Source of the DNA: Gemmatimonadota bacterium
Lineage (GTDB): Bacteria; Gemmatimonadota; Gemmatimonadetes; Gemmatimonadales; GWC2-71-9
Reading direction: 5' to 3'
Assembly (NCBI GenBank): GCA_016209985.1
Contig: JACQVB010000226.1
Location: forward strand, 1 to 61,215
DNA: 61,215 nt
A program made the translations under genes and the position numbers. The stretch's first letter is position 1; every line of letters starts with the position of its first letter. This document shows positions 2,612 through 57,351 of this stretch, one piece after another. The notes beneath the pieces were generated by a model. It was not told the origin of the DNA, made no database searches, and was given only the letters and a program-made list of their open reading frames with translations.

Positions 2612-2651
2612 TGTGAGCGGTGAGCAGCGAGCGGAACGGTCACCGCTCACA
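2612..2651. repeat. 7-mer (GTGAGCG-type) tandem array with short inverted arm
   Basis: tgtgagcggtgagcagcgagcgg...tcaccgctcaca; contains the stop codon of the upstream GT. Confidence 0.6.
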
Positions 2652-3945
2652 GCTTCGCAAATACGTCCGCGACCTTCCTGGCAAAGGCTCTCGCCGAGAA
2701 ATGGTCTTCCGCCCGCACCCGTCCCAAATGCCCAATCTGCCAAAGTTCTTCTCGCGCAAGGGACAATGCACGCCTGAGGGACGAAGACAACGACGCGGCA
2801 TCTCTTGGTGGAACCAGCCACCCGCCAACGGAAACCCCTTTTGCATTCTGCGCACTGCGCACTTGTCCCTCTGCGTTCTGCGTACTGCGCACTCCCTCCA
2901 GGATCTCCAACGGTCCGCCTTCGGCAGCCGCCAGCACCGGCACGCCGCAGGCCATCGACTCGAGAATGACCCGCCCGAATGGCTCGGGCCGAAGCGAGTA
3001 ATGCACGGTCACGTCCAGCTCGGGATAGACCAGCTCGATCCTCGGTTGAAAGCCGAGGATGTGGAATTGTGGGGCAGCGCGGCCGAGGTTCGAGAGCCGG
3101 ATACTTTCGTGCAGTGCCTCGCCGAACTCGCGTTCCGCGATCGTGTCGTAGATGCTTCCGCCCACGAAGACCAGATGTGCGTCGGGAATGCTTTCCGCGA
3201 TGGATCGGAACGCTTCGATGACGACCTCGTGTCCCTTCCACCGGGCGAAGACCGCGGGCATGCCGACCAGACGGGCCGGAGCGGGAATCCCTAGCGCTTG
3301 GTGAATCCATCCGGTGCGCTCGCGAGGCTTGAAACGATCCAGATCGACGCCGTTGGGGACGACCACCAGACGGTCGGACGGTCGGGCGGTCGGACGGTTG
3401 GTGCCGGTTTCCGCGGCTATCTGACCGTCTGACCGTCTGACCGTCTGACCGTCCCATGCCTCCGCCACCGCCTTCGAATTCGCGATGAGTGCATCCGGCA
3501 CCCGCCTCGCGAGCATCTTCCACGCGCGCCCGGTCGTCTGGGGCGGGAATTCGTGGAGATGCCACACGACCTTTTTGCCGAACGGCAAGGTCGTGGCGAG
3601 ATGGCTTTTGAATCCCACCGAGTAGAGGACGTTGGCTTCCTGGCAGAACTTGTGGCTCCGGAGCGAGCGGGCCCACAGCGGCAAAGCCATCGCGGCGGGA
3701 AGAGCGGACCAGAGCCTGCCACGCTGCTGCGACCCGCGCAACATGATTTTCGGAGCGGGCACGACTCTGGCGGGGACGCCCGATTGGTTGAGGAGCTCGA
3801 TCAGCGGTCCATCTCGCGGCACCAGGACCCGCAGCGCGATGTCGTGCTCGAAGGCCCGTTCGGCAAAATCCAACAACACGCGTTCGGTGCCGCCGAGCTG
3901 GGCCGAGGCGGCGAGGGCGGTGACCCGAAGTGGAGTGGCGGTCAT
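2647..3945 (-). CDS. Glycosyltransferase family 4
   Basis: GGTERV, VVPNGVD, RWKGH and EPFGRVILESMACGVPV motifs; start reassigned to ATG 3945; carries two repeat-derived in-frame insertions. Confidence 0.9.
   Translation of the reverse strand: MTATPLRVTALAASAQLGGTERVLLDFAERAFEHDIALRVLVPRDGPLIELLNQSGVPARVVPAPKIMLRGSQQRGRLWSALPAAMALPLWARSLRSHKFCQEANVLYSVGFKSHLATTLPFGKKVVWHLHEFPPQTTGRAWKMLARRVPDALIANSKAVAEAWDGQTVRRSDGQIAAETGTNRPTARPSDRLVVVPNGVDLDRFKPRERTGWIHQALGIPAPARLVGMPAVFARWKGHEVVIEAFRSIAESIPDAHLVFVGGSIYDTIAEREFGEALHESIRLSNLGRAAPQFHILGFQPRIELVYPELDVTVHYSLRPEPFGRVILESMACGVPVLAAAEGGPLEILEGVRSTQNAEGQVRSAQNAKGVSVGGWLVPPRDAASLSSSLRRALSLAREELWQIGHLGRVRAEDHFSARAFARKVADVFAKL
2840..2893. repeat. In-frame 7-mer (CTGCGCA-type) array inside GT4
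   Basis: Two blocks, ttgcattctgcgcactgcgcact and ctgcgttctgcgtactgcgcact, encoding VRSTQNAEGQVRSAQNAKG. Confidence 0.75.
3368..3454. repeat. In-frame 8-mer (GACGGTCR) inverted-repeat hairpin inside GT4
   Basis: (gacggtcg)x4-like arm, 19-nt loop, (ctgaccgt)x4 arm; encodes DGQTVRRSDGQIAAETGTNRPTARPSDR. Confidence 0.9.
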
Positions 3946-3958
3946 GGGGCGAGGCGGC

Positions 3959-4087
3959 AAGAGGTAAAGAGTAAGAACGAGTGAAGAGGGAAGAGTAAAG
4001 CAACCCCGCGTTGATGCGCGGAATCGGCAACCAAGCAGCCGTGGAAGAGTTTTGCTCTTCCCTCTTCCCTCTTCACTCTTCACTCTC
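3959..4087. repeat. Intergenic 7-mer (GTGAAGA/GGGAAGA) inverted-repeat pair
   Basis: gagtgaagagggaagagtaaa ... tttgctcttccctcttccctcttcactcttcactctc. Confidence 0.85.
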
Positions 4088-5242
4088 TCAATGGAGGAGT
4101 GTCCGGTACAGTTCCGCCGTCCTCCGTGCCGTTTCCACCCACCGGAATTTCTTGGCGCGCTCCAGCCCCCGCCTGACCAGTTGTTCGCGCCAGGTCGCAT
4201 TCATGGTGAGGCGGCGCAGGGCCACGACGTACGGCTCCACCTCCCGCCCGCCAACCACGATGGCCGCGTCTCCCGCCACCTCCGCCAGTCCGCCCGCGCC
4301 CGAGGTCACCACCGGTAGCCCCGACGCCATGGCCTCGAGCACCGGGAAACCGAATCCTTCGTAGTGGGAGGGGAAGAGCAGCACGTCGGCCGCGCGATAC
4401 GCGGCCCGGAGTTCGGTTTCCGCCGCTTCGCCGACGGTGCGTACCCGGGCGGCAATACCGCGGGCGGCAAGATCGACCCGCTGATCGGGCGTGAGCGTGC
4501 CACCGACCTGGAGCAGCCAGGCGTCGGTGCCGCTGGCGCGGAGGCCGTGCACCGCCGCGATGACGGCGGGGAGATTCTTTCGCGGTCCCACGCTGCCGAC
4601 GTGCAGCACCACAAACGCGCTCTGGGGGATGTCGAGGCGTTTCCGGGTTGCCTCCGGTGTCTCCCCGGTCCGGGTGAGAAATCCATCGTCCACGCCGAAG
4701 GGAATCACGTGGATCCGATCTTCGTGGCCCAGCCAGTCGGCCAGCTCGGAGCGCATCCACTCAGTGGCGACGATCCATGCGTCCGCCCGCCGGAGCGCAT
4801 TCAGCACCCATTCCAGCAGGCGGTTCCGGATCCGGTCTCGGAAGCCGGCGGCGCCACGCTCGACCGTCAAGACGGGCAGCAGGTCGTGGACGGTGACGAT
4901 GGTCGGCGCTTGCCGGCCGGCGCGCAGCACGTGCGCATAGGAATGATCCAGCACGTGGATCAGGTCCGCCCGCTGGGAACGGACTCGGCGGGGATAGCGG
5001 TAATAGCGCGCCAGGTAGCGGCGGGCTTCCTGAAATCCGGGCGCGGGAAGCAGCGGGAGCGGAATCGGGCCCGAGCGATTGCGGCGGCCGCCGTCGGTGG
5101 TGAGTCCCGCGATTTGGCCGGCGAGCCGCACCTCGAGGTCGGTGGCATAGCGGCGGAGGTGCTCGGTCAGCCGGGACGCATAGCGGTCCATCGACGGCCA
5201 GCGCTCGAGGGGGAGATCCGGCACCAGAAGAACTCTATACAC
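4088..5242 (-). CDS. Glycosyltransferase family 4
   Basis: TVHDL, PRKNL and EGFGFPVLEAMASGLPVV motifs; start reassigned to GTG 5242. Confidence 0.9.
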   Translation of the reverse strand: MYRVLLVPDLPLERWPSMDRYASRLTEHLRRYATDLEVRLAGQIAGLTTDGGRRNRSGPIPLPLLPAPGFQEARRYLARYYRYPRRVRSQRADLIHVLDHSYAHVLRAGRQAPTIVTVHDLLPVLTVERGAAGFRDRIRNRLLEWVLNALRRADAWIVATEWMRSELADWLGHEDRIHVIPFGVDDGFLTRTGETPEATRKRLDIPQSAFVVLHVGSVGPRKNLPAVIAAVHGLRASGTDAWLLQVGGTLTPDQRVDLAARGIAARVRTVGEAAETELRAAYRAADVLLFPSHYEGFGFPVLEAMASGLPVVTSGAGGLAEVAGDAAIVVGGREVEPYVVALRRLTMNATWREQLVRRGLERAKKFRWVETARRTAELYRTLLH

Positions 5243-5255
5243 TTGCACACACAAC

Positions 5256-5292
5256 GGCGTGAAGAGTGTAGAGTGAAGAGGGAAAAGTACTA
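5256..5292. repeat. 37-bp inverted repeat, left arm flanking the four-helix-bundle gene
   Basis: ggcgtgaagagtgtagagtgaagagggaaaagtacta; 32/37 match to the reverse complement of 5739-5775. Confidence 0.9.
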
Positions 5293-5649
5293 CTGTTTGC
5301 GCGTAAGCCTCTTGAGCAACCCGATGAGGAGCTTGATGAGCAGATCGGTGTCTTCTTGAAGGCGCTTCTGTTCTGTAGGATCCAGTAGCTCCATCTCGGC
5401 AGCCAGCTCGATATGCCAGGCGAGTTCGCACGCTGAGCCGAACGCAATCCGCAGGCAGCGAACCAATTGCCTGGGTGTACCGAGTGCATAGCCTTCGACA
5501 ATATTAGCTGGAATGGACGCGGCCGCGCGGCGGATTTGATCCGCGAGGCCAAAGTGCCGTCGTAACGGTTGTTGCATGGTGGCACGATAGGCTGCTCGTG
5601 CGACATCCTTAGCGTGGGTCCACGCTTTGAGAGTTCCGAGCGATTGCAT
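5290..5649 (-). CDS. Four helix bundle protein (23S rRNA intervening-sequence protein family)
   Basis: 119 aa with family motifs LKAW, FGLADQIRRAAASIPANIVEG and LRIAFGSACEL; lower GC than neighbouring genes. Confidence 0.9.
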   Translation of the reverse strand: MQSLGTLKAWTHAKDVARAAYRATMQQPLRRHFGLADQIRRAAASIPANIVEGYALGTPRQLVRCLRIAFGSACELAWHIELAAEMELLDPTEQKRLQEDTDLLIKLLIGLLKRLTRKQ

Positions 5650-5738
5650 GCACCCAATTCCGCAGCCAGCAGCGAAAGTGCATCATCATTTCCTTGCAGC
5701 TCGTGGCAAATTGTCTCACTCGGCTCTGGCCTTTCGGT

Positions 5739-5775
5739 TAGTACTCTTCCCTCTAAACTCTTCACCCTTCACGCC
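5739..5775. repeat. 37-bp inverted repeat, right arm flanking the four-helix-bundle gene
   Basis: tagtactcttccctctaaactcttcacccttcacgcc; supplies the stop codon of the upstream membrane protein. Confidence 0.9.
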
Positions 5776-7986: not shown

Positions 7987-9143
7987 GCCGGCAGCCGCGA
8001 GGCGAGTGCCTGCTGCAGCCGCTCGATCTGGCGCGCAGGGTCGCACAGCAGGCGGGCGCGGGCGGGACCGGCGGCGCCCAGGGCGCTCCGCGCTGCCGGA
8101 TCGGCCAGCAGCACGCGCAGAGCGTCCGCGAGTGCGACCGGATCACCGGGCGGAAGCAGGGCGCCACAGGTGAGATCCACCACCTCGCTGGCACCGCCGA
8201 TCGCGGACGTCACGACCGGGAGTCCGGCGTACAACGCTTCGATGAACGTGATGCCGAAAGATTCCGGAGTGACGTTCGGCTGGCAATAGATGTCGGCGGC
8301 GCACATCAACTCCCGAACGTCGGTGTGTTCGCCCAGAAAGCGCACCCGGCCGGCCAGCCCGAGCCGCGCGGCGGTGATACCGAGAGAGCCGACATAGGAG
8401 ACTTCCGCCTCGCGCTGGGGCCCGCCCACTTGCCACGCGACCCATTCACGCCGGTCGTTCAAGTGGGCCAACGCCTCCAGCATGATGCGGTGTCCCTTGC
8501 CCGGCTCCATCCGGCCGACCTGCAGGATGACCACCGTTCCCTCGGGTACGCCCAGCGCGCCGCGCAATCGCCCCCGTGCCGAGGCAGCGGCGGGAGGCGG
8601 AGGCGGCACCGGTGGATGAACGACGACCTGGGGAACACTCAACCCGGTGCGTGCAACCGCAGTGGCCGTGAAGTGACTGTTACAGATCGCCAGGTCGGGG
8701 CTCGTCCGCCGGGCCCACCGGTCCAGCCAGTGCTGCTCCTGAGGCGCCGCATGAAACCACCGAAGGACCCGTACGCGAGCGGACTGCACGGCCGAGCCGA
8801 AGACCGCCTGCGACCAGCCCGAGTGAAAAACCGCGAAGTCCGGGCGTTGCTGCTGCAGCAGCGCGGCGAGGCGGCGGCGTGCGCGCCAGACCGTCCAGGG
8901 GCGACTGACCCGGGCGGGTCCGAGAAAATCCACCCGGCTGCCGAGGGCGTGGAGCTCCTCGCTCAGGCGCCCGTCGAAACAAACCGCGAAGGACGACTGC
9001 AATTGCTCCTTATCCGCGGACCGTACCAGGGTCGCGAGCATGGACTCGATGCCGCCGTACAGGTTGCCGCTATGCACATGCAGCAGTCTGATTGGCAGGT
9101 TGCCTGATGGCTGATGGCTGATGGCTGGTGGCTCCAGCGTCAT
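7983..9143 (-). CDS. Glycosyltransferase family 4
   Basis: YGGIES, GRMEPGKG and ESFGITFIEALYAGLPVV. Confidence 0.9.
   Translation of the reverse strand: MTLEPPAISHQPSGNLPIRLLHVHSGNLYGGIESMLATLVRSADKEQLQSSFAVCFDGRLSEELHALGSRVDFLGPARVSRPWTVWRARRRLAALLQQQRPDFAVFHSGWSQAVFGSAVQSARVRVLRWFHAAPQEQHWLDRWARRTSPDLAICNSHFTATAVARTGLSVPQVVVHPPVPPPPPAAASARGRLRGALGVPEGTVVILQVGRMEPGKGHRIMLEALAHLNDRREWVAWQVGGPQREAEVSYVGSLGITAARLGLAGRVRFLGEHTDVRELMCAADIYCQPNVTPESFGITFIEALYAGLPVVTSAIGGASEVVDLTCGALLPPGDPVALADALRVLLADPAARSALGAAGPARARLLCDPARQIERLQQALASRLPA
9104..9133. repeat. In-frame 7-mer (CTGATGG)x4 array at a GT N-terminus
   Basis: ctgatggctgatggctgatggctggtggct, encoding PPAISHQPSG. Confidence 0.8.
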
Positions 9144-10219
9144 GTGACCGGATCAACGACCGACCGATAGACTGCCAGCGTGTCGGCCGCGACCTGATCC
9201 CAGGTTCGATGCAACGCGATCGCGCGGCCCGCTTCCGCCAGGCGCCGCCGCATGTTTTGGTCGTCGCGCGCAACCCGTAGGGCGGCCGCAGTCCCCTCAT
9301 CGTCGGCACCCACGATCCAGCCCGACCGGCCATTCTCCATCAAATCGGCGATTCCAGCCTCCCGGGAAACGATCACCGGCACCCCGTAGGCCAACGCCTC
9401 ACCGACGACCATGGCGAACGTGTCGTAGATCGTGGGGTGCAAGAGGACGTCGGCCGCCGCGAACGCGACCCGCATGTCCGCCAAACCTCCGGCCCAGCGG
9501 ACTCGCTCGGTGATTCCCAGCGCGTGGGCCCTCGCAAGGTACTGCCCGCTGGCGGAGGTGCTCGCGACCAGCAACTGCACGCTCGGCGTCCCCGCGACCG
9601 CGCGGGCGGCGGCATCGAATCCCTTCCGTGCGTCTCCCGCATACAGCGCAACGAATGCGTCGGCTGGAAGGCCGAGTTGCCTTCGCGCCTCGGCCCGGTC
9701 GGGCAAGGGCGTGGCACCCGGAAAGCCGTGATGGATCACGGTTACCCCTACGGTCCGGCCATAGTACGACGCGATGTCGGCAGCCGCGCGCCGGCTGGGA
9801 GCGATGACGGCCCGGGCCTGACGAACCAACGCGCGCTCGCGGGCGGTGACGAACCCGCCCAGCACCCGTTCACCGATCGGGGCGATCACACCGGCCTGCC
9901 TGGCCGCGTCTCTCCACGCGTCCAGCACGATGTGGGTCGTCACTACATCCGCGGCTCGCGTCACCCAGCCTTGAGCGTGGACCACGTCATGCCGCTTCCG
10001 GACCGCGGCGAAGGCCGCGGGGAAGGTCATGATCGTGGCATAGGCGCGGCCCCGCAACGCCGGTACCTGCACCATGCGGACGCCGTCAACCGTAGTGGAC
10101 CATTCGGAGGCGTACACGGTGACTTGGTGCTCGCGGGCGAATCGCCTCGAAAGCTCGACGACATACCCACCCGTTCCGGAGGCCGGATCGAAATTGTGAA
10201 CGACGAGGGCGATGTCCAC
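9140..10219 (-). CDS. Glycosyltransferase family 4
   Basis: RKG and YDTFAMVVGEALAYGVPV motifs (WaaG-like). Confidence 0.88.
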   Translation of the reverse strand: MDIALVVHNFDPASGTGGYVVELSRRFAREHQVTVYASEWSTTVDGVRMVQVPALRGRAYATIMTFPAAFAAVRKRHDVVHAQGWVTRAADVVTTHIVLDAWRDAARQAGVIAPIGERVLGGFVTARERALVRQARAVIAPSRRAAADIASYYGRTVGVTVIHHGFPGATPLPDRAEARRQLGLPADAFVALYAGDARKGFDAAARAVAGTPSVQLLVASTSASGQYLARAHALGITERVRWAGGLADMRVAFAAADVLLHPTIYDTFAMVVGEALAYGVPVIVSREAGIADLMENGRSGWIVGADDEGTAAALRVARDDQNMRRRLAEAGRAIALHRTWDQVAADTLAVYRSVVDPVT

Positions 10220-10238
10220 CCCTATCCCCGCCCCTGAA

Positions 10239-10351
10239 AGGCGTGAAGAGGGAAGAGTGAAGAGGGAAGCGCACTGCTTTCGCAGCCGTCTTCACGGTGA
10301 TGGTGGCGTGGTCTCACTCTTCCCTCTTGACTCTACACTCTCCACTCTTTT
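10239..10351. repeat. 7-mer (GTGAAGA-type) inverted pair; right arm translated as a methyltransferase C-terminus
   Basis: aggcgtgaagagggaagagtgaagagggaagcg ... cactcttccctcttgactctacactctccactctttt. Confidence 0.85.
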
Positions 10352-11113
10352 CCCCACGAACCACACTTGGCTGGATAGCTGCGGCGGCAGCCACCGCACC
10401 GGCGACGCTCCCATCCATTCTAGGGCGAGCCGCGAGGCGAGTTTTTCCCGCAGCACCATCCAGTTGAATCCCTTGTGATCGTGAAACGTGCTGCCGTCGG
10501 CGGCCCGATGCTGCACCCGGCGCACGTGGGGGCGCGCACCCGCGAAGACGCCGGCCGCCAGCTCGGACCAGGTGTACGGGGTCGTGCCAGGATAGTGGCC
10601 GATGCCGCGCCACCCGGCAATCCGCCGCACCGTCTGTTTGACCAGCAAGGGGAGTCCGGTTTCCACCGGAACGCTGATCAGCAAGCGGCCGCCGGGCGCC
10701 AGTAACGCCGTCAGCTGGTCCAGTACCTCGTCGATTCTTACCACATGCTCGAGGACCTCCATGCAGGAGACCATATCATAGGCGCCACGGTGTTCGGGTT
10801 GCTCGAGCTCGGAAATCAGAACGAAGGAGAGATTCGGGATGCCACCCAGCCGCGTGCGGCAGTCGGTGACCAGGTCCGGGGTGATCTCCGCCCCCACCGC
10901 GTGCCGGGGCGGACTGGTTCCGCGCATGAGCAGTGCCAGAAATGTTCCATCGCCGCAGCCGTAGTCGAGCACGCGTGCGGCGTCAAACCGGCGCGCGATC
11001 TCCAGCGCCATCTCGAAACGGCGCCGGTGACTCCAGGCAATCAGCCAGCTCCGGCTGAAGATCTGTTTCGCCGCGTAATGGCCTTGAGCGATCGGATCGG
11101 ACTTTTCGCTCAT
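10292..11113 (-). CDS. Class I SAM-dependent methyltransferase
   Basis: VLDYGCGDG, MEVLEHV and LAPGGRLLISVP; start reassigned to ATG 11113. Confidence 0.88.
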   Translation of the reverse strand: MSEKSDPIAQGHYAAKQIFSRSWLIAWSHRRRFEMALEIARRFDAARVLDYGCGDGTFLALLMRGTSPPRHAVGAEITPDLVTDCRTRLGGIPNLSFVLISELEQPEHRGAYDMVSCMEVLEHVVRIDEVLDQLTALLAPGGRLLISVPVETGLPLLVKQTVRRIAGWRGIGHYPGTTPYTWSELAAGVFAGARPHVRRVQHRAADGSTFHDHKGFNWMVLREKLASRLALEWMGASPVRWLPPQLSSQVWFVGKRVESVESRGKSETTPPSP

Positions 11114-11117
11114 GTTA

Positions 11118-23509: not shown

Positions 23510-23511
23510 GG

Positions 23512-42239: not shown

Positions 42240-42281
42240 TACGGCCTCTATGCCGACGGGATCTGAGAGGGCGAGCATAGC

Positions 42282-49201: not shown

Positions 49202-49214
49202 GCGGGCGCCGGGC

Positions 49215-49297
49215 AACGGCACAACGGCATAACGGCACCACGGCATTCGTACGTGTCGGGAATTCGTGCCGTCATGCCGTTATCCCGTCGTGCCGTC
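49215..49297. repeat. 8-mer (ACGGCAYR) inverted pair between recJ and rsmD
   Basis: 31-nt arms at 49215-49245 and 49267-49297, 26/31 complementary. Confidence 0.9.
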
Positions 49298-49319
49298 GCG
49301 GCCCGCCTGGGCCGCGCTG

Positions 49320-49835
49320 ATGCGCATCATCGCGGGCGAGTTCCGCGGGCGGACGCTGCGGCCGCCCAGTGACCGGCGGGTGCGTCCCACCGCCGATCGA
49401 GTGCGTGAAGCCTGGTTCAGCATTCTCGGTCCCTATCTCCCTGGGGCGAACGTGCTCGATCTCTTCGCCGTATCCGGCGCGCTCGGGCTCGAGGCGCTCT
49501 CGCGGGGTGCTCGGCACGTCGACTTCGTCGAGATCTCGAAAGCGTCTCTCGACGCGCTCCGCGCCAACGTGGCGGCGCTCGATGCCGAAGAGCGGGTCCG
49601 GGTCCACCGCGCCGACGCGCTTCGGTTTGTGTCGCGCCTGGCGCCCCGCTCCTACGACGTCGCGCTGGCCGACCCTCCCTACACCACCGATCAGGCGGCG
49701 CGGCTGGTGGAGAGCTTCCGCGAACGGCCGTTCGCCGCCATCCTCGGCATCGAGCACCGCGGTGCCGTGACGTTGCCCGGCGACGATACTCGCCGGTATG
49801 GTGATACCGCCCTCACCTTCTGTTACGCGCCATGA
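49320..49835 (+). CDS. rsmD: 16S rRNA m2G966 methyltransferase RsmD
   Basis: MRIIAG, RPTADRVRE and DPPY; motif I reads DLFAVSG. Confidence 0.92.
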   Translation: MRIIAGEFRGRTLRPPSDRRVRPTADRVREAWFSILGPYLPGANVLDLFAVSGALGLEALSRGARHVDFVEISKASLDALRANVAALDAEERVRVHRADALRFVSRLAPRSYDVALADPPYTTDQAARLVESFRERPFAAILGIEHRGAVTLPGDDTRRYGDTALTFCYAP

Positions 49836-50323
49836 CTCGTATCGCGATCTATCCCGGATCCTTCGACCCGATCACCCACGGGCACGTGGACCTCATCCAC
49901 CGCAGCCTGCAGTTCGTCGACCGCCTGATCGTCGCCGTTGCCACCAACTCTTCCAAGACGCCGATGTTCACGCTCGAGGAACGGCTGGAGATGATGGGCG
50001 AAGTCCTGCAGGACGAGCCCCGGGCGGACGTCCGTTCATTCGGCGGATTGCTGGCGGACTATGCGCGCCAGTCGGGCGCGAGCATGGTGGTGAGGGGCCT
50101 GCGCGCGGTGAGCGACTTCGAGTACGAGTTCCACATGGCGCTGATTAACCGTCAGCTGCACTGCGTTCTGGAGAACGTGTTCATGGTGCCGGCTGTCCAC
50201 CTGAACTATCTCTCGTCGAGCCTGGTGCGGGAAGTCGCCCGGCTGGGCGGTGACGTCAGCGCCTTTGTGCCGGCGGCCGTCCTGCGGGCATTCAACGCGA
50301 AACTCAAGAAAAGTGAGATGTAA
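49832..50323 (+). CDS. coaD: Phosphopantetheine adenylyltransferase
   Basis: YPGSFDPITHGH, RGLRAVSDFEYE and SSSLVRE. Confidence 0.96.
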   Translation: MTRIAIYPGSFDPITHGHVDLIHRSLQFVDRLIVAVATNSSKTPMFTLEERLEMMGEVLQDEPRADVRSFGGLLADYARQSGASMVVRGLRAVSDFEYEFHMALINRQLHCVLENVFMVPAVHLNYLSSSLVREVARLGGDVSAFVPAAVLRAFNAKLKKSEM

Positions 50324-50345
50324 GAAGTGAGAAGTGAGAAGTTCC
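50311..50345. repeat. 7-mer (AAGTGAG) array forming the coaD-pta junction
   Basis: aagtgag atgtaag aagtgag aagtgag aagttcc; holds the coaD TAA and the pta GTG. Confidence 0.8.
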
Positions 50346-51298
50346 GGACTGCCCTCCACCGTCGCGCCGCGGCGCTCCAGCGGAGCGTGGTGCTAGCGGA
50401 AGGATGGGACCCCCGGATCCAGAACGCCGCACGCATTCTCGAGCGGGAGAAAATCGCCCGGGTGGTGGTGCTGGGTCGCCGGATCGAATCGGATCCGAGA
50501 TTGGAGCAGGTGGCGGCACATTTGCACCAGCGAAAACCGGACCGGACCGGCACCCTGGAAAAGGCCCTGGAGCTTGCCCGCGATCCCCTCCGCTTTGCGG
50601 GCGGTCTGGTGGGACTGGGCCTGGCCGACGCCGCGGTCGGTGGGGCCACTTGTCCCACCGCCGACGTCCTCCGCGCGGCGCTTTGGGCCATCGGTCCGGC
50701 AGCGGGAGTCACGACCGTGAGCAGCGCTTTCTACATGGTGACGAAGCGACCCGCCGACCCGCCGACCCGCCGGGGTGGGCGGCGCGGTGGGGAGGCGGTG
50801 CTCACCTTCACCGACTGCGGCGTCGTTCCCGACCCGACGGCTATGCAGCTGGCGGACATCGGCATGGCGGCGGCGCGGGATCGGCGCAACATTGTGGGGG
50901 ACGAACCGGTCGTCGCCTTCTTGTCCTACAGCACGAGAGGCAGTGCGGAAGGCCCCCGGGTCGATAAGGTCCGGGACGCCGTCCGCCGCTTCCGGGAGCG
51001 CGAGCCGTCGGTGCGGTGCGATGGCGAGCTGCAGGGGGACGCCGCCCTGGTCCCCGAGATCGCCCGTGTCAAGGCGGCGGACTCCCCGGTTGCCGGGGCG
51101 GCCAACGTTCTGGTGTTTCCCGACCTTGACAGCGGGAACATCGCGTACAAACTGGTACAGCGGCTGGCCGGCGCGGATGCGATCGGCCCCATCATGCAGG
51201 GCCTGGCCCGTCCCATGGCGGATCTCTCCCGGGGAGCGACCGCCGAAGACGTGGTCGATGTGGCAGCCGTCACGGTGCTTCAGTCTGCGGGAGCGTAG
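50327..51298 (+). CDS. pta: Phosphate acetyltransferase
   Basis: [35 protein letters not shown] and DLSRG. Confidence 0.9.
50747..50791. repeat. In-frame 8-mer (CGACCCGC)x3 array in pta
   Basis: Encodes [15 protein letters not shown] between SAFYMV and VLTFTDC. Confidence 0.7.
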
Positions 51299-51299
51299 A

Positions 51300-51635
51300 A
51301 TGAGCTTTTCGGTAAAGAAAGACCCGAAGGGTGTCGTGGTGGTCACGGTGGACGGCCAGCTCATCGTCGGGAACCGGCAGGAGCTCAAACAGAAGATCAC
51401 CGAGGCACTCGAGGCAGGAGAACGCAAGTTCCTCATCGACTTTACCAACACCGGCTACATCGATTCCTCCGGGCTCGGCGTGCTGGTATCGCTTTCGCGC
51501 AAGATTCGCGAGGCGGACGGCGAGCTTCGGCTGGCGGGACTCAATGAAGATCTCCGCACGTTGTTCGAGCTGACCAAACTCGACTCCCTCTTCAGCATTG
51601 CCGACTCCCCCGCTGCCGCCCTCGCCGGATTCTGA
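51300..51635 (+). CDS. STAS anti-sigma-factor antagonist (RsbV/SpoIIAA-like)
   Basis: YIDSSGLGVLV and FELTKLD. Confidence 0.93.
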   Translation: MSFSVKKDPKGVVVVTVDGQLIVGNRQELKQKITEALEAGERKFLIDFTNTGYIDSSGLGVLVSLSRKIREADGELRLAGLNEDLRTLFELTKLDSLFSIADSPAAALAGF

Positions 51636-51639
51636 AGCG

Positions 51640-51813
51640 GGCTTCGCCCTGAAGGGCTTCAGCCCTGAAGGGTTCGCCTCCCTCAGACTCTGTGTGCGCC
51701 GCTCACCCAGCGGTGCCTGGCGCGCCTCGTCCCCCTCTCCCGAAGGCGCCGCCCTGAGCGGAGTGGGAGCCTGCCCCGCGCGAAGCGAGGGGGAGAAAGG
51801 GGACCGGGGAGAG
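51640..51813. repeat. Composite REP-like region
   Basis: gccctgaaggg twice; gtccccctctccc...ggggaccggggagagg with nested gcctgccccgcgcgaagcgagg. Confidence 0.7.
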
Positions 51814-52212
51814 GTGATCTCGATGCGCGTTCCGTCCAACCTCGAGGTAGTGGAAGAAGCGGTGGATGTCGTCGCTCGTCACTGCCTCGCCTCCGGCCTG
51901 GCGCCGCGGGCGGCTCGCTTCAATTTGCGGGTCGCGCTCTCGGAGGCGCTCTCCAACGCCATCGTGTACGGCAACGGGCTCGATCCTTCCAAGTCGGTCG
52001 ATGTCTGGATCGAGGTCGCTGATCAGGGCATCGCGGTCCACGTGTGCGATCAGGGAGCAGGGTTCGACCCCGGCGCCATACCGGATCCGACTCTTCCCGA
52101 GCGCCTCGAGCGGCCGGATGGGCGGGGCTTGTTCCTCATCCGCCAGCTGGTTGACGATGTCTCCTTCAATGACCGAGGAAACTCCATCTGCATGATCCTG
52201 CGCCGCGCCTAG
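51814..52212 (+). CDS. Anti-sigma factor / Ser kinase (RsbW-like)
   Basis: EALSNAIVYGN, DQGAGFD and GRGLFLI; start uncertain. Confidence 0.9.
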   Translation: MISMRVPSNLEVVEEAVDVVARHCLASGLAPRAARFNLRVALSEALSNAIVYGNGLDPSKSVDVWIEVADQGIAVHVCDQGAGFDPGAIPDPTLPERLERPDGRGLFLIRQLVDDVSFNDRGNSICMILRRA

Positions 52213-52262
52213 ACCGGCTCGACGCACTCCTCCAATCGCTCGGTTCGCTGGTCGGCTCGCGC

Positions 52263-53789
52263 GTGCGCCTCTGGCGTTACGCCCGGGGGCGACTGCGGCC
52301 GGTGGCCGGTTGTCAGGGAGCCACGCCTCCGCGAGTGCGCGTCGGGCCCGAAGGTCTCGAAGCGCAGCCGAGTGAAGGCCGGTGGATCGCGCCGCTCAGT
52401 GGCCTGGACGGATACTGGTACGAAGTGGTCGCGGGTGCGGAACAGGCCGCCGCCGCGGCCCAGCGCCTCGCTCCCATCCTGTCCCAGCTGCTCTCCGCCG
52501 AAGTCGACACCCTCCGGCTGGCCGAGGATCTGGCCGACCGCCTCGAAGAAATCGAGCTGCTGTATTCGATCAGTGAAGTGCTGGGCCGCACCATCCGCCT
52601 CGAGGAGGCGGCCCAGAAGATCGTGCGCGAGGTGAGCGACGTGGTGGGAGCCCGCCGCTCGTCCATCCTGGTGGCGGATGAGAGCGGGCGGACGCTGCGT
52701 CCGGTCGCGGGATACGGGCTGGACGTCACCCGCGTGGCCCCGGTCCCGGTGGACGACGCCGAGTCCATTGCCGCGCGGGTCTTCCGGGAACGCCGCATGA
52801 TCGGCTACGACCCGGCTGATCCCGCGTGGAGTACTCCGGGGCGGGGCATCGACCCGACCTATCGCGGCACCGCGTTTCTCTCGGCTCCCATCCTGTATCC
52901 CACCCCGGAAGGCGCGCCCCGTCCGGTGGGAGTCATCAACCTCACGGACCGGGTGGGAGCCGACGCCTTCACCCAAGGTGAGCGGCGGTTGGTCGCGGCC
53001 ATCGCCGGGCAGATCGCGGCGGCGATCGAAAACGCCCGGCTGGTCGATCGGGATCGCCAGCAACTGCGAGTGCGCCGGGAGCTCGAGCTGGCGCACGATC
53101 TCCAGATGCGCCTGTTGCCTCGCCCCGCCGCCATCGGAATGGAGGCATCGATCGGCGCGCGGTGCGAGTCCGCCGAGAGCGTCGGCGGGGACTTCTACGA
53201 GTTCTTCCGACTGGCGGAGCACCGGGTCGGCATCATGCTCGGCGACGTCTCGTCGCACGGTTTCGCCGCGGCGCTCATCATGGCGCTCACCTTGTCGGCC
53301 GCGGGCATTCACGCCTCGGCGGCAGACACACCGGAAGAAACCCTGCAGCGGCTGCTCGAATCCATCACGGCCGAGTTGGCGAGGACCGAAATGCACCTGG
53401 CCCTCTTCTACGGTGTGGTCGACGGCACGCGCGGAAGGTTGCGCTACGCCAACGCGGGACACCCCCATGCGTTTCGGGTCACCGGCACCGGCATCGCGGA
53501 ACGCCTCGGCGCCACCTCACCGCCGCTGGGTCTCGCCCGCTCCGACACGATCAAGGGCGCGGAGATCAGCTGGCATCCCGGGACCGATCTCCTGGTCCTG
53601 GTGTCCGACGGCATCGTCGACGCGCGCAACGCGGCGGGCGACCGCTTCGGCGAATCGCGGGTGCTGGAGCTGGTCCAGCGCCATTCCGGTGAGTCGCCCG
53701 CCAGCATCGTGAACGCGGTATTCACTGCCGTCTCCGCGCACTCGCCGAGCGCCGCGGACGACCGCACCTTCCTCGTTCTCCTCGGCTGA
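52263..53789 (+). CDS. GAF + PP2C (SpoIIE/RsbU-like) phosphatase
   Basis: GAF region ending AIENARL; VGGDFY, GDVSSHG, SDG and DDRT; may start at CTG 52188. Confidence 0.92.
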   Translation: MRLWRYARGRLRPVAGCQGATPPRVRVGPEGLEAQPSEGRWIAPLSGLDGYWYEVVAGAEQAAAAAQRLAPILSQLLSAEVDTLRLAEDLADRLEEIELLYSISEVLGRTIRLEEAAQKIVREVSDVVGARRSSILVADESGRTLRPVAGYGLDVTRVAPVPVDDAESIAARVFRERRMIGYDPADPAWSTPGRGIDPTYRGTAFLSAPILYPTPEGAPRPVGVINLTDRVGADAFTQGERRLVAAIAGQIAAAIENARLVDRDRQQLRVRRELELAHDLQMRLLPRPAAIGMEASIGARCESAESVGGDFYEFFRLAEHRVGIMLGDVSSHGFAAALIMALTLSAAGIHASAADTPEETLQRLLESITAELARTEMHLALFYGVVDGTRGRLRYANAGHPHAFRVTGTGIAERLGATSPPLGLARSDTIKGAEISWHPGTDLLVLVSDGIVDARNAAGDRFGESRVLELVQRHSGESPASIVNAVFTAVSAHSPSAADDRTFLVLLG

Positions 53790-54638
53790 GTGGGGCGGCG
53801 CCTCGGCCAGCACTTCCTCACCGATCCGGCAATTCTGGACCGGATCGTCGATGCGATCGATCCCGGTCCGGACGACGTGGTGATCGAAATCGGGCCGGGG
53901 AAGGGAACGCTGACTCGCCGGCTTGCGCCGCGGGTGGGGCACGTCGTCGCGATAGAAAAGGACGCGGCGCTCGCCCAGCAACTGCGTGAAGAGTGTAGAG
54001 TGAAGAGGGAAGAGTACGGCCACGCCCAGGTGACGATCGTCGAAGGTGACGCGCTCACGCTCGACTGGACCAGGCTCACGGCGGCGCCCACTCTTCCCTC
54101 TTCACTCTACACTCTTCACGCCTTCAAGGTCATCGGCAACATCCCCTACTACATCACCTCACCCCTCATCGAGAAGGCGCTCACGACGCCACTTCCTTCG
54201 GTGATCGTGTTTCTGGTGCAGCGGGAGTTCGCTGGCCGGCTCACGGCGGCCCCCGGTGGAAAGGAATACGGCGCGCTCTCCGCAGGGGTCCAGGCGATTG
54301 CACGAGTCGAGAAACTGTTCGTGGTGCGTGCCGGTGCGTTCCATCCGCCACCCAAAGTGGATTCGGCGGTGGTCCGCCTTACCCCACGGAAGGACCCCAC
54401 CGTGAGGGGTGACGAGCACCCCCGGTTCCGGGCATTCCTGGCGGCGGTTTTTTCCCAAAGGAGAAAACAACTGGGTCGTGCGCTACGCGGGGTGACCGGC
54501 ATGAGTAAGGAGGACGTCCTGGCGGTGCTGGACGGAATCGGCATCGATCCCGCATCGAGGGCGGAGGTCCTCACCGTCGACCAGCTCACCAGTCTGTTTC
54601 GGCGAACCCAATTGTTCCCGGACTCGGTGACTGAGTAA
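53790..54638 (+). CDS. rsmA: 16S rRNA dimethyladenosine transferase RsmA/KsgA
   Basis: LGQHFL, EIGPGKG, GDAL, GNIPYYITSP and FHPPPKVDSA. Confidence 0.96.
   Translation: MGRRLGQHFLTDPAILDRIVDAIDPGPDDVVIEIGPGKGTLTRRLAPRVGHVVAIEKDAALAQQLREECRVKREEYGHAQVTIVEGDALTLDWTRLTAAPTLPSSLYTLHAFKVIGNIPYYITSPLIEKALTTPLPSVIVFLVQREFAGRLTAAPGGKEYGALSAGVQAIARVEKLFVVRAGAFHPPPKVDSAVVRLTPRKDPTVRGDEHPRFRAFLAAVFSQRRKQLGRALRGVTGMSKEDVLAVLDGIGIDPASRAEVLTVDQLTSLFRRTQLFPDSVTE
53984..54121. repeat. Perfect 32-bp inverted repeat inside rsmA
   Basis: gcgtgaagagtgtagagtgaagagggaagagt (53984-54015) is the exact reverse complement of 54090-54121; 74-nt loop. Confidence 0.95.
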
Positions 54639-54668
54639 GATCCGGTCCATGCCCTTCGTTCGTTCCCC

Positions 54669-55520
54669 GTGACCGGTCTGGCCGTGCACCCGGAAGGGAG
54701 GTTGGTCGACCGGGCGCTCCAGTACCTCTCCAGCGGCCCGGCCGACAGCAGCGTGCTCACCCATCAGGTCCTCGGCATCCCGATGGCGACTCCCTTCGTG
54801 GCCGAGCGGCTGGTGGCGGCGCTTCTGGGTGCCGACCCCCGCGTCGGCCGCCTCGGGGATGGGCGCTGGATGCTGGTCGCGCCTGCCACCGCGTCGCCGG
54901 CGCTATCCGATTCTGCCTTCGCAGTCGTGGACGTCGAGACCACCGGCGGAATGGCGGGGCGCGGCGATCGCATCACCGAGATCGCGATCGTCGTCGTGTG
55001 CGGTGAACAGGTCGAGCTGCTGTATGAGTCTCTGGTGAATCCCGGCCGGCCCATTCCGCGTGCGGTTACCCAGGTCACGAACATCACCGATGAGATGGTC
55101 CGCGACCGCCCGGCCTTTGCCGAAATCGCCGATGAAGTGCTCGCCGTCCTTGCCGGACGGATCTTCGTGGCTCACAACATGAGCTTCGACTGGCGGTTCG
55201 TATCGAGCGAGCTGCGGCTGGTGCATGGCGTGGGGCTCGAGGGGCCGAAACTCTGCACCATCAAGCTCGCGCGGCGATTCCTTCCCGGTCTCAAGTCACG
55301 CAGCCTCGACAGTTTGGCCTACTACTTCGGGATGGAAATCGAGCGCCGCCACCGCGCCGGTCCCGACGCGCTGGCTACCGGGCACATACTCCAGCGGCTG
55401 CTCCGACTGGCGCAAGAGTCAGGCGCGTCCACGCTGAACGATCTTTGGGAGCTGAGCCGCCGCCGCGCCCGTCGCCGCCGACGTCGTCGGGCCCGTCCTG
55501 AGTCCATGGGAGAGCTATGA
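54669..55520 (+). CDS. DEDDh 3'-5' exonuclease (DnaQ-like)
   Basis: VVDVETTG, AHNMSFD and HRAGPDA. Confidence 0.92.
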   Translation: MTGLAVHPEGRLVDRALQYLSSGPADSSVLTHQVLGIPMATPFVAERLVAALLGADPRVGRLGDGRWMLVAPATASPALSDSAFAVVDVETTGGMAGRGDRITEIAIVVVCGEQVELLYESLVNPGRPIPRAVTQVTNITDEMVRDRPAFAEIADEVLAVLAGRIFVAHNMSFDWRFVSSELRLVHGVGLEGPKLCTIKLARRFLPGLKSRSLDSLAYYFGMEIERRHRAGPDALATGHILQRLLRLAQESGASTLNDLWELSRRRARRRRRRRARPESMGEL

Positions 55521-55533
55521 CGCCCGCCGAGAA

Positions 55534-55567
55534 GTCATGCCGTCAAGCCGTCATGCCGTCATGCCGT
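55534..55567. repeat. 8-mer (GTCATGCC)x4 array
   Basis: gtcatgcc gtcaagcc gtcatgcc gtcatgcc gt. Confidence 0.85.
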
Positions 55568-55575
55568 GACCCTGC

Positions 55576-56472
55576 ATGATCCTCACCTACACGTTCCGCG
55601 TCGGTCGCCTCACTTGTCACACCCTTGAGGGTGGCCGGCAGCATCTCGACGGCGGCGCAATGTTCGGTGTCGTCCCTAAGCCCCTCTGGGAACAACAGAT
55701 CAAGCCGGACGCGCAGAATCGGATTCCCCTGGCGTTGCGCTGCCTCCTGATCGAGCATGACGCCGGTTTGGTGCTGGTCGACAACGGGATTGGCAATAAG
55801 GAGTCGGACAAGTTTCGTCGCATCTATGGCGTGGAAAACGCCGGGCGCCAGGGAGTGACCCAGCTGCACGACGCCTTGCACGAATTGGGCTTCGCCCCCT
55901 CCGACATACGCTACGTGATCGACACCCATTTGCATTTCGATCATGCGGGCGGTAACACCCACGTCGAAGAAGAGGAGGGCAAGGAGCCGCAGGATCGCCG
56001 GGCGGTTATTTCCTTCCCCAACGCCACCTACGTGGTCCAGGGACGGGAGCTGGAATTCGCCAGTCACACCAACGAGCGGACGGCGGCGAGCTACCTGCGA
56101 CGCAATTTCGATCCCATCACCCAAGCGGGGCGATGGAAGCTGGTGGAAGGGGACCTCGAGTTCTTGCCCGGAATCCGCCTGATGCGGACGCCGGGCCACG
56201 TCCCGCATCTCCAGTCGGTCGTGGTCCACGATGGGCCGGACACGGCATGTTTCGTGGCGGACCTGATCCCGACCACCGCCCACCTGCCGCTTCCCTGGAT
56301 CATGGGGTACGACCTGGAGCCGCTGGTCACGCTGGAATCCAAGCGCCGGCTGCTCAACCAGGCCCATCGGGAAGGCTGGATCCTGATCTTCGAGCACGAT
56401 CCGGAGCGTGCGGTCGGAAGGGTCGTGCAAGATGGTAAATCGTTTATCTACCAGCGACTTGACACTCCGTGA
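55576..56472 (+). CDS. MBL-fold metallo-hydrolase (YtnP-like)
   Basis: DGGAMFGVVPKPLW, THLHFDHAGG and TPGH. Confidence 0.92.
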   Translation: MILTYTFRVGRLTCHTLEGGRQHLDGGAMFGVVPKPLWEQQIKPDAQNRIPLALRCLLIEHDAGLVLVDNGIGNKESDKFRRIYGVENAGRQGVTQLHDALHELGFAPSDIRYVIDTHLHFDHAGGNTHVEEEEGKEPQDRRAVISFPNATYVVQGRELEFASHTNERTAASYLRRNFDPITQAGRWKLVEGDLEFLPGIRLMRTPGHVPHLQSVVVHDGPDTACFVADLIPTTAHLPLPWIMGYDLEPLVTLESKRRLLNQAHREGWILIFEHDPERAVGRVVQDGKSFIYQRLDTP

Positions 56473-56487
56473 AGGGCGGCATACGTT
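56459..56487 (+). promoter_or_regulatory. sigma70 promoter of the infC operon
   Basis: TTGACA-17-TACGTT. Confidence 0.7.
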
Positions 56488-56494
56488 CGGTCAG

Positions 56495-56629
56495 ACAAAC
56501 GAGCCAAGCAAGCGCGAGTCGCTTCACCCTCTTGCCGCCACTGGGCGTGCGTTCAGGGTTCCGATGAGAGAGCGGGCGGGAGATGGCCGCCCGAGTCAGC
56601 GGATTCCGGAAGAGGCGGGTCCGCTTTTT
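56495..56629 (+). ncRNA. Putative L20-responsive leader RNA
   Basis: AAGCG-loop-CGCTT hairpin, then an ACCCT/AGGGT stem, then a terminator, upstream of infC-rpmI-rplT. Confidence 0.5.
56598..56629 (+). terminator. Leader terminator/attenuator
   Basis: AGCGGATTC...GGGTCCGCT followed by a T tract. Confidence 0.65.
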
Positions 56630-56635
56630 AATTGC

Positions 56636-56706
56636 TGAACGCGGAGCGTGGAACGCGGAGGTGTGGTATTTCTGCGTTCGCTCCGCGTTCCGAGTTCCGC
56701 GCTCCA
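56636..56706. repeat. 7-mer (GGAACGC-type) inverted pair before the infC RBS
   Basis: tgaacgcggagcgtggaacgcggag ... ctccgcgttccgagttccgcgctcca. Confidence 0.8.
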
Positions 56707-56728
56707 CACTCGGGAGGCATCACTGACA

Positions 56729-57250
56729 ATTCAGAATGAAAAACAAGAACAACGAGTTCGGGTCAACCGGCAAATACGCATCAGTCCGGTCCGACTCATC
56801 GGGGCCGACGGATCACAGCTCGGCATCGTGCAGCTGGAAGAAGCGTTTCGGATAGCCGCGGAAAGCGGTCATGATCTGGTCGAAGTCGCCCCGCTGGCTC
56901 GTCCGCCGGTGGTCAAGGTGATGGACTACGGGAAGTACCGTTTCGAGCAAGCCAAGGCGGCCCGCGCGGCAAAGAAAAAACAGCATGTGATACAGATGAA
57001 GGAAGTGAAGTACCGGCCGGGCATCGACGACCACGACTTCGATTTCAAAACCCGGCACGCGCGCAACTTCCTCCAAGAAGGCAACAAGGTGAAGCTCACC
57101 ATGATGTTCCGCGGCCGGCAGGTCGCCCATCCCGAGCTCGGGCGTGAGGTCCTCCAGCGAGTGGTCGATGCGCTCCAGGATGTCGGGAAGGTCGAAATGG
57201 AGCCGAAGCTCGAGGGGCGGAACATGACCATGGTGGTGGGACCCAAGTGA
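56729..57250 (+). CDS. infC: Translation initiation factor IF-3 (ATT start)
   Basis: RVNRQIR, DLVEVAP, DYGKYRFE and MFRGRQ; in-frame ATT 11 nt after GGAGG. Confidence 0.95.
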   Translation: MQNEKQEQRVRVNRQIRISPVRLIGADGSQLGIVQLEEAFRIAAESGHDLVEVAPLARPPVVKVMDYGKYRFEQAKAARAAKKKQHVIQMKEVKYRPGIDDHDFDFKTRHARNFLQEGNKVKLTMMFRGRQVAHPELGREVLQRVVDALQDVGKVEMEPKLEGRNMTMVVGPK

Positions 57251-57351
57251 CGGCATGACGGGATAGACGGCATGACGGCATGCCGTTATGCCGTGGAGGG
57301 TGGTGGAGGGGAGAGGGGATGCCGTTGGGGCTGGGCGGTTGGGCGGCGGGT
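57248..57351. repeat. Mixed 8-mer (ACGGCATG) and G-rich arrays between infC and rpmI
   Basis: tgacggcatgacgggatagacggcatgacggcatgccgttatgccgt, then tggaggg and gggcggtt units. Confidence 0.8.

Follow-up and report, generated by a model that had tools for sequence, protein, structure and literature searches.

The stretch of DNA analysed here (the window) is 61,215 nucleotides (nt) long and is contig C180 of a 4.64-Mb, 289-contig assembly of a Gemmatimonadota bacterium (genome label G000; GC content 65%, 95% complete). Its Pfam-recognised genes comprise a polysaccharide cluster at 1-11 kb (a Wza-like exporter and several family 4 glycosyltransferases, GT4), mutS2, recJ, rsmD, coaD, a PTA-like gene, a SpoIIE/GAF phosphatase gene and ksgA, and an RNase-T-like exonuclease gene together with the series from infC through pheS-pheT. 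Between and inside these genes lie degenerate tandem arrays with a period of 7 or 8 nt, commonly arranged as two inverted arms around a loop, and one such pair brackets a small four-helix-bundle (PF05635) gene. We consider it likely that the arrays represent the inverted arms at the ends of a family of foldback elements akin to the intervening sequences (IVSs) of rRNA genes, in which the PF05635 cassette is the full form and gene-less forms have accumulated where they are tolerated.

Arrays of period 7 and 8 are paired as inverted arms

A sequence-only reading of the window had put the number of arrays at about 20, a fair count: at a Tandem Repeats Finder (TRF) score of at least 36 we detected 22, against a mean of 0.43 and a maximum of 2 in 100 order-2 Markov simulations. 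Every unit named in that reading was recovered in place by TRF, and an inverted-repeat scan found partners. It had also suggested scanning the genome against a control, and both the arrays and their inverted pairing proved to lie far above simulation and random placement. At a TRF score of at least 40 the genome holds 532 arrays of period 7 (1, 1 and 0 in order-1, order-3 and order-5 simulated genomes) and 219 of period 8 (5, 2 and 1, respectively); after merging of overlaps, 918 arrays remain at a score of at least 36. An inverted partner within 400 nt (at least 70% ungapped identity) accompanied 551 of these 918, as compared to 13 of 918 when the same arms were scanned at random places. Neighbouring array pairs were inverted in 265 cases and direct in 11, with a median gap of 21 nt; partners at longer range, up to 3 kb, mostly looked like two independent hairpins of one family, one at either end of a gene, and were not used. 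The expectation that arms are usually inverted was borne out by this pairing, with the exception of seven solo arrays in the window (at 2848, 9104, 32061, 50311, 50747, 55534 and 7621), for which no partner above the null was found, gapped search included. The arrays and their pairing are confirmed as observations, and chance is excluded for both.

PF05635 genes lie in foldback cassettes

The window gene at 5290-5649 matches PF05635 (E 3.7e-25) and TIGR02436 ('four helix bundle protein'), and the closest PDB relative of its product is XCC0516 of Xanthomonas campestris (2GSC, E 2e-13), an entry with five chains. The cassette sits between a GT4 gene and the next gene, outside rRNA, and its GTGAAGA-type arms recur elsewhere in the window:

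5257-5775 (-): complete foldback cassette; GTGAAGA-type arms at 5257-5289 and 5742-5775, four-helix-bundle gene at 5290-5649; arm complementarity 0.83-0.85
53984-54121 (+): ksgA pair; GTGAAGA arms at 53984-54015 and 54090-54121, in frame in ksgA (53790-54638), 32/32 complementary; folding dG -82.5, z -9.1
3971-4086: GTGAAGA-family hairpin between two GT4 genes, at the start of 2647-3945 and the stop of the one that ends at 4088; dG -59.9, z -8.7; 15/16 match to an arm of the window's own cassette
10236-10352: GTGAAGA-family hairpin between GT4 gene 9140-10219 and methyltransferase gene 10292-11158; z -5.8; 15/16 match to the window's own cassette arm

G000 has six PF05635 genes, five of them scorable, and four show at least 21/24 inverted flank matches; of the other two, the one on C33 scores 19/24 and the one on C99 lies too near the contig start. 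When 24 relatives are included there are 84 loci, and 72 of the 81 scored have an inverted 24-mer flank match of at least 20/24, a level reached by 1% of 200 random flank pairs. Cassettes have a median span of 538 nt, and their arms lie about 46 nt before and about 56 nt after the domain; the open reading frame (ORF) is present at all 84 loci, and cassettes of 480-600 nt hold the small gene alone. Visibly periodic 7- or 8-mer arms were seen in most of the 72 (37 pass a crude autocorrelation cut), those of relatives G025 and G027 being non-periodic, and each PF05635 copy within a genome carries its own unit family. Metagenome loci were drawn from the best 80 of 592 relatives, fetched with four proteins and unassigned as to taxon; 56 had at least 300 nt on both sides, and 39 of these 56 reached 20/24 or more, against a null of 2% (GC 0.30-0.66, median span 466 nt). 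The PF05635 cassette architecture is thus general across the order and extends to metagenomes beyond it.

Gene-less arrays share their arms with cassettes

In random samples of 12-40 kb, in which cassettes were partly sampled, same-family arrays were not independent and seven genomes contributed matches, 17 of 60 gene-less arrays matched a cassette arm of their own genome (at least 15/16), as compared to 16/1440 for the cassettes of other genomes. Of the 914 arrays in G000 itself, 90 match a resident cassette (that on C7 in 58 cases, that in the window in 32), and a further 278 match cassettes found only in other genomes (CAGGTGT in G017, AGCCATC in G014, AGTGCGR in G012). The in-frame arms of ksgA are identical to the left arm of the window cassette at 33 of 34 nt, and the ksgA arms of G005 and G012 use units of cassettes resident in those genomes.

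Arm length appears constrained and loops are unrelated

The median arm length is 29 nt for period 7 and period 8 alike, and length, rather than unit number, therefore looks constrained. Period-7 copy number peaks at four (251 arrays), with 149 arrays at five and a drop to 18 at six; some arrays reach 8-15 copies. There are 54 canonical heptamers and 33 octamers, in about 15 main families, of which the largest are ACACCTG, AAGAGGG, ACCACGC, AAGTGAG, AGCCATC, ACTCCGC and ACCCGCCG. Within a family, 4-6 nt of the unit form a constant core and 2-3 positions vary (e.g. NNN+CAGG), variants follow one another in shuffled order, and the variation, read by eye, consists mostly of ordinary transitions. 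The proposal of a single system defined by periodicity and geometry rather than by sequence stands on this evidence: period, arms of about 29 nt and inverted layout are shared across many units and unrelated loops.

No covariation of variable units was detected between the two arms of 53 CAGGTGT hairpins (0.313 within versus 0.310 between hairpins, permutation p 0.44). A recent palindromic birth of the pairs was rejected, as arm agreement was no higher within than between hairpins of the CAGGTGT and GGTGCGT families, a result with which a cruder identity test agreed; an apparent within-hairpin excess for the cores AGAG and GAAG was an artefact of mixed sub-families. Loops within one family are unrelated (a score of 0.3 is exceeded by 1.6% of 1344 such pairs and by 0% of 4221 pairs drawn from different families), and the hairpins are therefore not copied as whole units in the manner of MITEs (miniature transposable elements with inverted repeats). 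GC content by codon position, examined for the idea of whole-hairpin mobility, gave no signal for short in-gene loops (0.58/0.58/0.60), and long loops were intermediate. No target-site duplication was evident: direct repeats of 3 nt flank 6 of 261 hairpins, against 3.5 in a shifted control, and those of 4 nt flank 1 against 2, with arm boundaries so fuzzy that short duplications could be missed.

Hairpins follow stop codons and occupy operon junctions

Genome-wide gene calls were crude and based on GC content at third codon positions, and many hairpins scored as in-gene sit near called gene ends and may be intergenic; we therefore relied only on in-gene cases checked by Pfam or PDB. An MFS case (contig C244) was not counted as an in-gene pair, its left 'arm' being weak (0.78). 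This caller assigns 87.5% of the genome to coding sequence and places 226 of 362 hairpins between genes. Between same-strand genes the hairpin starts a median of 4 nt past the upstream stop codon (interquartile range 0-7), and the median distance from its end to the next start is 25.5 nt. By spacer type, 132 hairpins are tandem, 56 convergent and 26 divergent, a depletion in divergent spacers (26/214 classified hairpins versus 549/2339 of spacers). Those of the window occupy junctions of housekeeping operons (before and after infC, pheS/pheT and recJ/rsmD), with a solo array at coaD/PTA. The locations named in the sequence-only reading, namely gene junctions, a tRNA spacer and positions in frame within proteins, were all recovered, the last for GT4, MutS2, KsgA and the PTA-like gene. 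The remaining arrays of the window are:

2613-2657 (array part 2613-2634): short GTGAGCG array at the Wza-like/GT4 gene junction; weak inverted half, partner identity 0.64
2848-2893 (-): solo CTGCGCA array of 6.3 units, in frame in GT4 gene 2647-3945; no partner above the null
3367-3454 (-): octamer GACGGTCR hairpin, in frame in GT4 gene 2647-3945; dG -73.2, z -10.3
9104-9133: solo array of CTGATGG units (AGCCATC family) where two GT4 genes meet; 16/16 match to a four-helix-bundle cassette arm of relative G014 (L211)
11114-11223: GTGAGCC hairpin upstream of the methyltransferase gene; dG -57.1, z -6.8
20222-20810: CCTCACCCCTGTCCCCTCTCCC-family arms bracketing about 540 nt in a divergent spacer; borderline, partner score 32 versus a 99% null of 33
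24553-24624 (+): octamer GCGGCAYR hairpin filling the tRNA-Met/tRNA-Val spacer; z -7.7
29907-29934: solo arm of the GGGAGAGGGGACAGGGGTGAGG family (TRF)
32061-32089: solo CTTTTCT array at a gene junction
44648-44740 (+): GGTGAGT/CCACGCA hairpin, in frame in the linker of MutS2 (42642-45008), residues 670-700; z -3.6
49213-49299: octamer ACGGCAYR hairpin at the recJ/rsmD junction; z -5.5
50311-50342: solo AAGTGAG array at the coaD/PTA-like gene junction; matches an arm of the L274 cassette of G002, a relative in the same genus, at 16/16
50747-50772 (+): solo CGACCCGC array inside the PTA-like gene
55534-55567: solo GTCATGCC array at the RNase-T-like/MBL gene junction
56637-56704: GGAACGC hairpin just upstream of infC; dG -42.4, z -4.8
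57248-57294: TGACGGCA array (ACGGCAYR octamer) running into its own inverse with a near-zero loop, at the junction after infC
58975-59123: CCTCTCC/GGGAGAG hairpin at the pheS/pheT junction; 23/23 perfect arms, 97-nt loop; dG -104.9, z -14.1; matches an arm of the L251 cassette of relative G009 at 15/16

Folding of the window stems, with z between -3.6 and -14, indicates that they would be very stable if single-stranded. The loop of the pair at 20222-20810 holds no PF05635 match, no clear ORF and no recognisable gene, and the pair may be a decayed cassette or one with other cargo.

Among 25 relatives, sampled at random over 12-40 kb, array density ranges from 0 (seven genomes) to 4.5 per 10 kb, a patchiness more in keeping with a proliferating element than with a conserved function. 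The tRNA-Met/Val spacer carries differing unit families in G001, G011, G030, G019 and G027 and a solo arm in G012; no array was evident in this spacer in G010, G021 and G023, and that of G005 and G025, where the tRNAs lie 0.7-1.2 kb apart, was outside the comparison. In G012 an AGTGCGG hairpin (L213 1246-1306) lies about 10 nt from the apparent end of a 5S rRNA gene, at the close of the rrn operon, and L272 of the same genome has a four-helix-bundle gene between arms of this family.

Arms lie in frame in conserved protein genes

The arms in ksgA flank 74 nt of native codons that encode the conserved VTIVEGDALTLDW segment, and the RrnaAD Pfam match spans the region. Alignment to solved KsgA structures (B. 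subtilis 6ifs) places the loop on native residues and each arm at a gap. Further translated in-frame hairpins of G000 lie in the GTPase domain of HflX (C188), the linker of MutL (C75), the interdomain region of NadE (C174), one unidentified protein (C162) and Nnr (C249), where weaker arms (0.73) surround the conserved VLTPHPGEF motif; these add roughly 25-40 residues each. Two whole genes are likewise bracketed by arms, namely the four-helix-bundle gene of the window and an ArsC-like gene on C269. Since the arms surround native codons and whole genes, they are not simply the ends of a unit pasted in whole.

Heptamer arms occupy the same two positions of ksgA in nine distinct Gemmatimonadales sequences, always as a matched inverted pair and with differing units (GTGAAGA in the window; ACGTGCA in L001; CAGGTGT in L002 and L005; CGGCGCA in L003; GGGCGTG in L004; GGGAAAA in G002; GAATGCG in G005; GGGGATT in G012). 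G001 has the right arm only and G010 a left arm without a complementary right arm; no ksgA arms were found in L006, L007, G003, G004, G006 and G015, and the ksgA genes of G011 and G026, unreadable with the pattern used, are outside the count. In an Acidobacteriota metagenome-assembled genome (L071), AGGTGCG (x8) and GCCCCCA (x3.7) arrays lie beside and inside ksgA (2942-2996, 3285-3310).

Sequencing runs and other features of the window

Contigs from public sequencing runs (X1-X3, covering window positions 44000-60000) often stop at arms, at 54013, 50770, 55555, 57283 and 59118. Arms thus break assemblies, which may explain the 289 contigs of G000 and possible missing cassettes. Among contigs of four DNA runs over the window no empty-site allele was seen; one joint, from 54018 to 54090 with 16 other letters, probably comes from another locus of the same family. 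In contigs of three groundwater runs the coaD region (49874-50407) reaches a depth of 450-660x versus about 10-50x elsewhere, presumably conserved sequence from many organisms and not a copy-number signal. An Rfam search of the window matched only two tRNAs. ARAGORN called an 88-nt tRNA-Arg at 26180-26267 (-), with its anticodon at position 29 and inside a long ORF; without Rfam confirmation, this is probably a false call.

Comparison with known systems

[quoted passage not shown] The cassettes resemble those of Coxiella burnetii and Leptospira in their length of about 430-540 nt, stem of about 28 bp and PF05635 gene in the loop, and also in a sporadic, selfish distribution and in sites reused by unrelated sequences across lineages (PMC4990558). 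Of the features that define an S23p IVS, the terminal inverted-repeat stem and the PF05635/TIGR02436 gene in the loop are present here, whilst the location in helix 25 or 45 of 23S rRNA is not, the window cassette lying between a GT4 gene and its neighbour. No array was found inside the 23S genes of G012 and G020, both full-length matches, and the assembly of G000 lacks a 23S gene. Further differences are that the cassettes here lie between ordinary genes, have tandem 7- or 8-mer arms and occur several per genome with differing arms, and that they are accompanied by hundreds of gene-less copies, some of them within protein-coding frames. RNase III excises the classical IVS from its transcript, whereas no RNase III gene was found in the genomes searched here.

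Heptamer repeats have been described in Xanthomonas (GGGAATC) and Nostoc (GGGGA(C/T)T) by Rehm et al. (2015, PMC4692102), who report that 70-75 repeat pairs of Xanthomonas are convergent and able to form stem-loops, their presence being conserved at orthologous sites. As here, these are intergenic tandem heptamers of few units, although a single G-rich unit is treated there as a G-quadruplex motif (PMC4692102), whereas we found about 15 families, octamers as well as heptamers, arms capped at about 29 nt and a gene-bearing cassette. PF05635 goes unmentioned in PMC4692102, the terms 'S23', 'intervening' and 'four helix' occurring 0 times each. Two further likenesses are that Xanthomonas campestris is the source of the PDB entry closest to the product of the window's PF05635 gene (2GSC), and that G012 uses GGGGATT/GGGATTC units. 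[quoted passage not shown] Cyanobacterial STRR heptamers were reportedly described by Mazel in 1990 and by Vioque in 1997. A literature search that covered few subscription journals and no supplements, such that a prior description is possible, found nothing linking heptamer or STRR repeats to PF05635 and no report of such repeats in Gemmatimonadota.

Repetitive extragenic palindromic (REP) sequences are imperfect palindromes of 20-40 nt with a conserved GTAG/CGTC head. Together with bacterial interspersed mosaic elements (BIMEs) and the REP doublets known as REPINs, associated with REP-associated tyrosine transposases (RAYTs), they resemble the hairpins in being short, present in hundreds of copies and placed just downstream of genes in operons. 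The arms here are tandem and surround unrelated loops; we found neither a palindrome with the GTAG/CGTC head tetranucleotide in the arms inspected nor, at 18 loci, Y1 genes flanked by their own repeats. At 51632-51678 the window also carries a separate repeat with a 16-nt period and palindromic, GGCTGAAGCC-like units; GGCTGAAGCC occurs 25 times in G000, and in relative G008 a similar array (L174 1395-1443) lies 143 nt upstream of a Y1 transposase gene. These repeats may form a separate, true REP-RAYT system.

As with MITEs, gene-less derivatives outnumber the gene-bearing form and terminal inverted repeats are present; no target-site duplication and no internal sequence shared with a transposase parent were found, and the gene-bearing form encodes only a four-helix bundle, with no known transposase. 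Eukaryotic foldback transposons have inverted arms built of short tandem repeats, and are further alike in their heterogeneous loops and in that host DNA may lie between the arms. Rickettsia palindromic elements, each one insert of 100-150 nt and of defined sequence, lie in frame in conserved protein genes and are translated; the translated in-frame hairpins are alike in this respect, and differ in that two separate 30-nt arms can flank native codons. [quoted passage not shown] Nor do the cassettes show the reverse transcriptase beside Avd, the template/variable pair or the adenine-specific change of diversity-generating retroelements (DGRs), holding the small gene only and varying mainly by transitions. 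Membership of the REP/RAYT, MITE, CRISPR and DGR classes is rejected because each fails on a tested defining feature, and the earlier exclusion of CRISPR, REP and plain slippage is upheld by these comparisons and by the excess of inverted pairing.

Discussion

Taken together, these results make it probable that the arrays are the arms of an IVS-like foldback element. The full-length form would span about 500-600 nt, with arms of about 29 nt and 4-5 units bracketing a PF05635 gene, an Avd relative. Gene-less forms with the same arm sequences would comprise arm-loop-arm hairpins, solo arms and arm pairs around host sequence, tolerated right after stop codons in operons, in the tRNA spacer and in in-frame surface loops or linkers of proteins, and may be derived from, or installed by, cassettes. 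In RNA or in single-stranded DNA the arms would form a stem of about 30 bp. They may be set down as matched pairs on either side of sequence already in place, possibly through a switch of template that starts from the first arm, a step familiar from template-switch mutations; such a switch during replication would explain matched arms around native or unrelated loops, as well as solo arms.

Several observations weigh against this interpretation. As many as 546 of the 914 arrays of G000 match none of the 72 sampled cassettes, four of which are its own, and its largest families, CAGGTGT (53 hairpins), ACCACGC, ACCCGCCG and AGCCATC, have no resident cassette in the assembly. Unrelated loops and the lack of target duplications count against it too, no transposase link to the cassettes was found, and we know of no catalytic activity for a 119-residue helical bundle. 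Cassettes with matching arms (at least 15/16, 12 pairs) do encode more similar proteins (identity 0.548 versus 0.310), but linkage of gene and arm alone would yield this. The tie to the four-helix-bundle gene suspected in the sequence-only reading held through shared arms and architecture, 72 of 81 loci being bracketed, and failed through copy number: PF05635 count and array density gave a Spearman rho of 0.25 (p 0.21, 26 genomes), a failure that follows from the genome having only six PF05635 genes, and with 12-40 kb sampled per genome and genomes that are related such density correlations neither prove nor exclude a link. G017 and G025, with 12 and 8 PF05635 genes, showed zero arrays in 40 kb.

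The candidate role in RNA processing or termination put forward earlier fared poorly. Structures selected in RNA (intercistronic stabilisers, terminators or processing sites), each evolved in place as a useful 30-bp stem, would account for the very strong folding, for hairpins that start just past stop codons and are scarce between divergent genes, and for the occupation of the same sites in several genera (ksgA and the tRNA spacer, with the 5S rRNA end in G012). Stop-codon proximity, however, is also expected of any insert in a compact genome; there is no sense-strand excess of G:U-compatible mismatches (162 versus 186 intergenic, 50 versus 84 in genes), and the variable units do not covary. 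Density varies from none to its maximum among related genera, some arms are placed within coding sequence on either side of native codons, the genomes searched yielded no RNase III gene, and evolution in place leaves shared unit families and cassette arms unexplained, so that we regard this account as unlikely. Replication slippage in place, with inverted pairs arising by chance, is barely credible: the units are tandem and degenerate and some arrays are long, at 8-15 copies, yet plain microsatellites are already contradicted by the inverted pairing, by a length capped at 4-5 units and by unit families that recur at tens of loci and in the cassette arms of other genomes.

Two enzymatic alternatives invoke other machinery. 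Mobilisation of REP- or REPIN-like elements by a RAYT-type Y1 (IS200-like) transposase acting on single-stranded hairpins would suit a genomic niche equal to that of REPs; G000 has two PF01797 matches, and five of the six sampled genomes with at least two (G000 included) have at least 1.75 arrays per 10 kb. Y1 count and array density are nevertheless not significantly correlated (rho 0.29, p 0.15, 26 genomes), and G011 has 3.5 arrays per 10 kb yet no Y1 match. Arrays lie within 350 nt of Y1 genes at 4 of 18 loci (L169, L171, L173 and L178), on one side each and without the two-sided flanking of RAYTs, no conserved GTAG/CGTC head is evident in the arms inspected, and about 15 main unit families would fall to one or two enzymes; we think this explanation very improbable. 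Copying in the manner of DGRs, in which the four-helix-bundle protein and a reverse transcriptase overwrite arms with the arm sequence of a resident cassette, draws on the identity of PF05635 with the Avd family (PMC10053308). It would explain why arms are always a matched pair and why the same ksgA sites hold different families, that of a resident cassette in three of five genomes checked (G000, G005 and G012), and G000 has one reverse transcriptase gene. No reverse transcriptase lies beside the cassettes, though, each of which holds the small gene alone, unit changes seen by eye are mostly transitions and not adenine-specific, and there is no template/variable repeat pair with end homology; this, too, is improbable.

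The IVS-like foldback element that we favour might be extended further, in a form that we offer tentatively and consider possible but on balance doubtful. Stand-alone PF05635 would be the core of a widespread self-propagating foldback element, whose pentamer ring binds the 4-5 units of its own arms, one per subunit, reading the constant core of 4-5 nt and ignoring the 2-3-nt spacer as the trp RNA-binding attenuation protein (TRAP) reads GAG repeats, and promotes the copying of arms around other sequences; cyanobacterial STRR and Xanthomonas heptamers, gene-less rRNA IVSs and the hairpins described here would then be footprints of one element class. An apparent lack of RNase III in Gemmatimonadales may let 30-bp stems accumulate, even in mRNAs. 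PF00636 matched in 0 of 31 Gemmatimonadales genomes (several 99-100% complete and in 3-10 contigs), PF14622 in 0 of 1 and, at E <= 0.1, TIGR02191 in 0 of 5, whilst among 14 control genomes, 10 bacterial and 4 archaeal, matches were obtained in 8-9 of the bacteria. If this absence is true, long mRNA stems would be less harmful here than in most bacteria.

For annotation, the arms matter in that they add 7-12 residues apiece to the conserved proteins KsgA, Nnr, HflX, MutL, MutS2 and NadE, and in that they break assemblies. An excess of tandem heptamers in bacteria has been on record for decades without an established origin or function, and the dispersed hairpins, which carry the arms of their own genome's cassettes, may connect them to one gene family. 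These data tie together three puzzles: the heptamer repeats of bacteria, the 'four helix bundle protein' found outside DGRs and the spread of rRNA intervening sequences.

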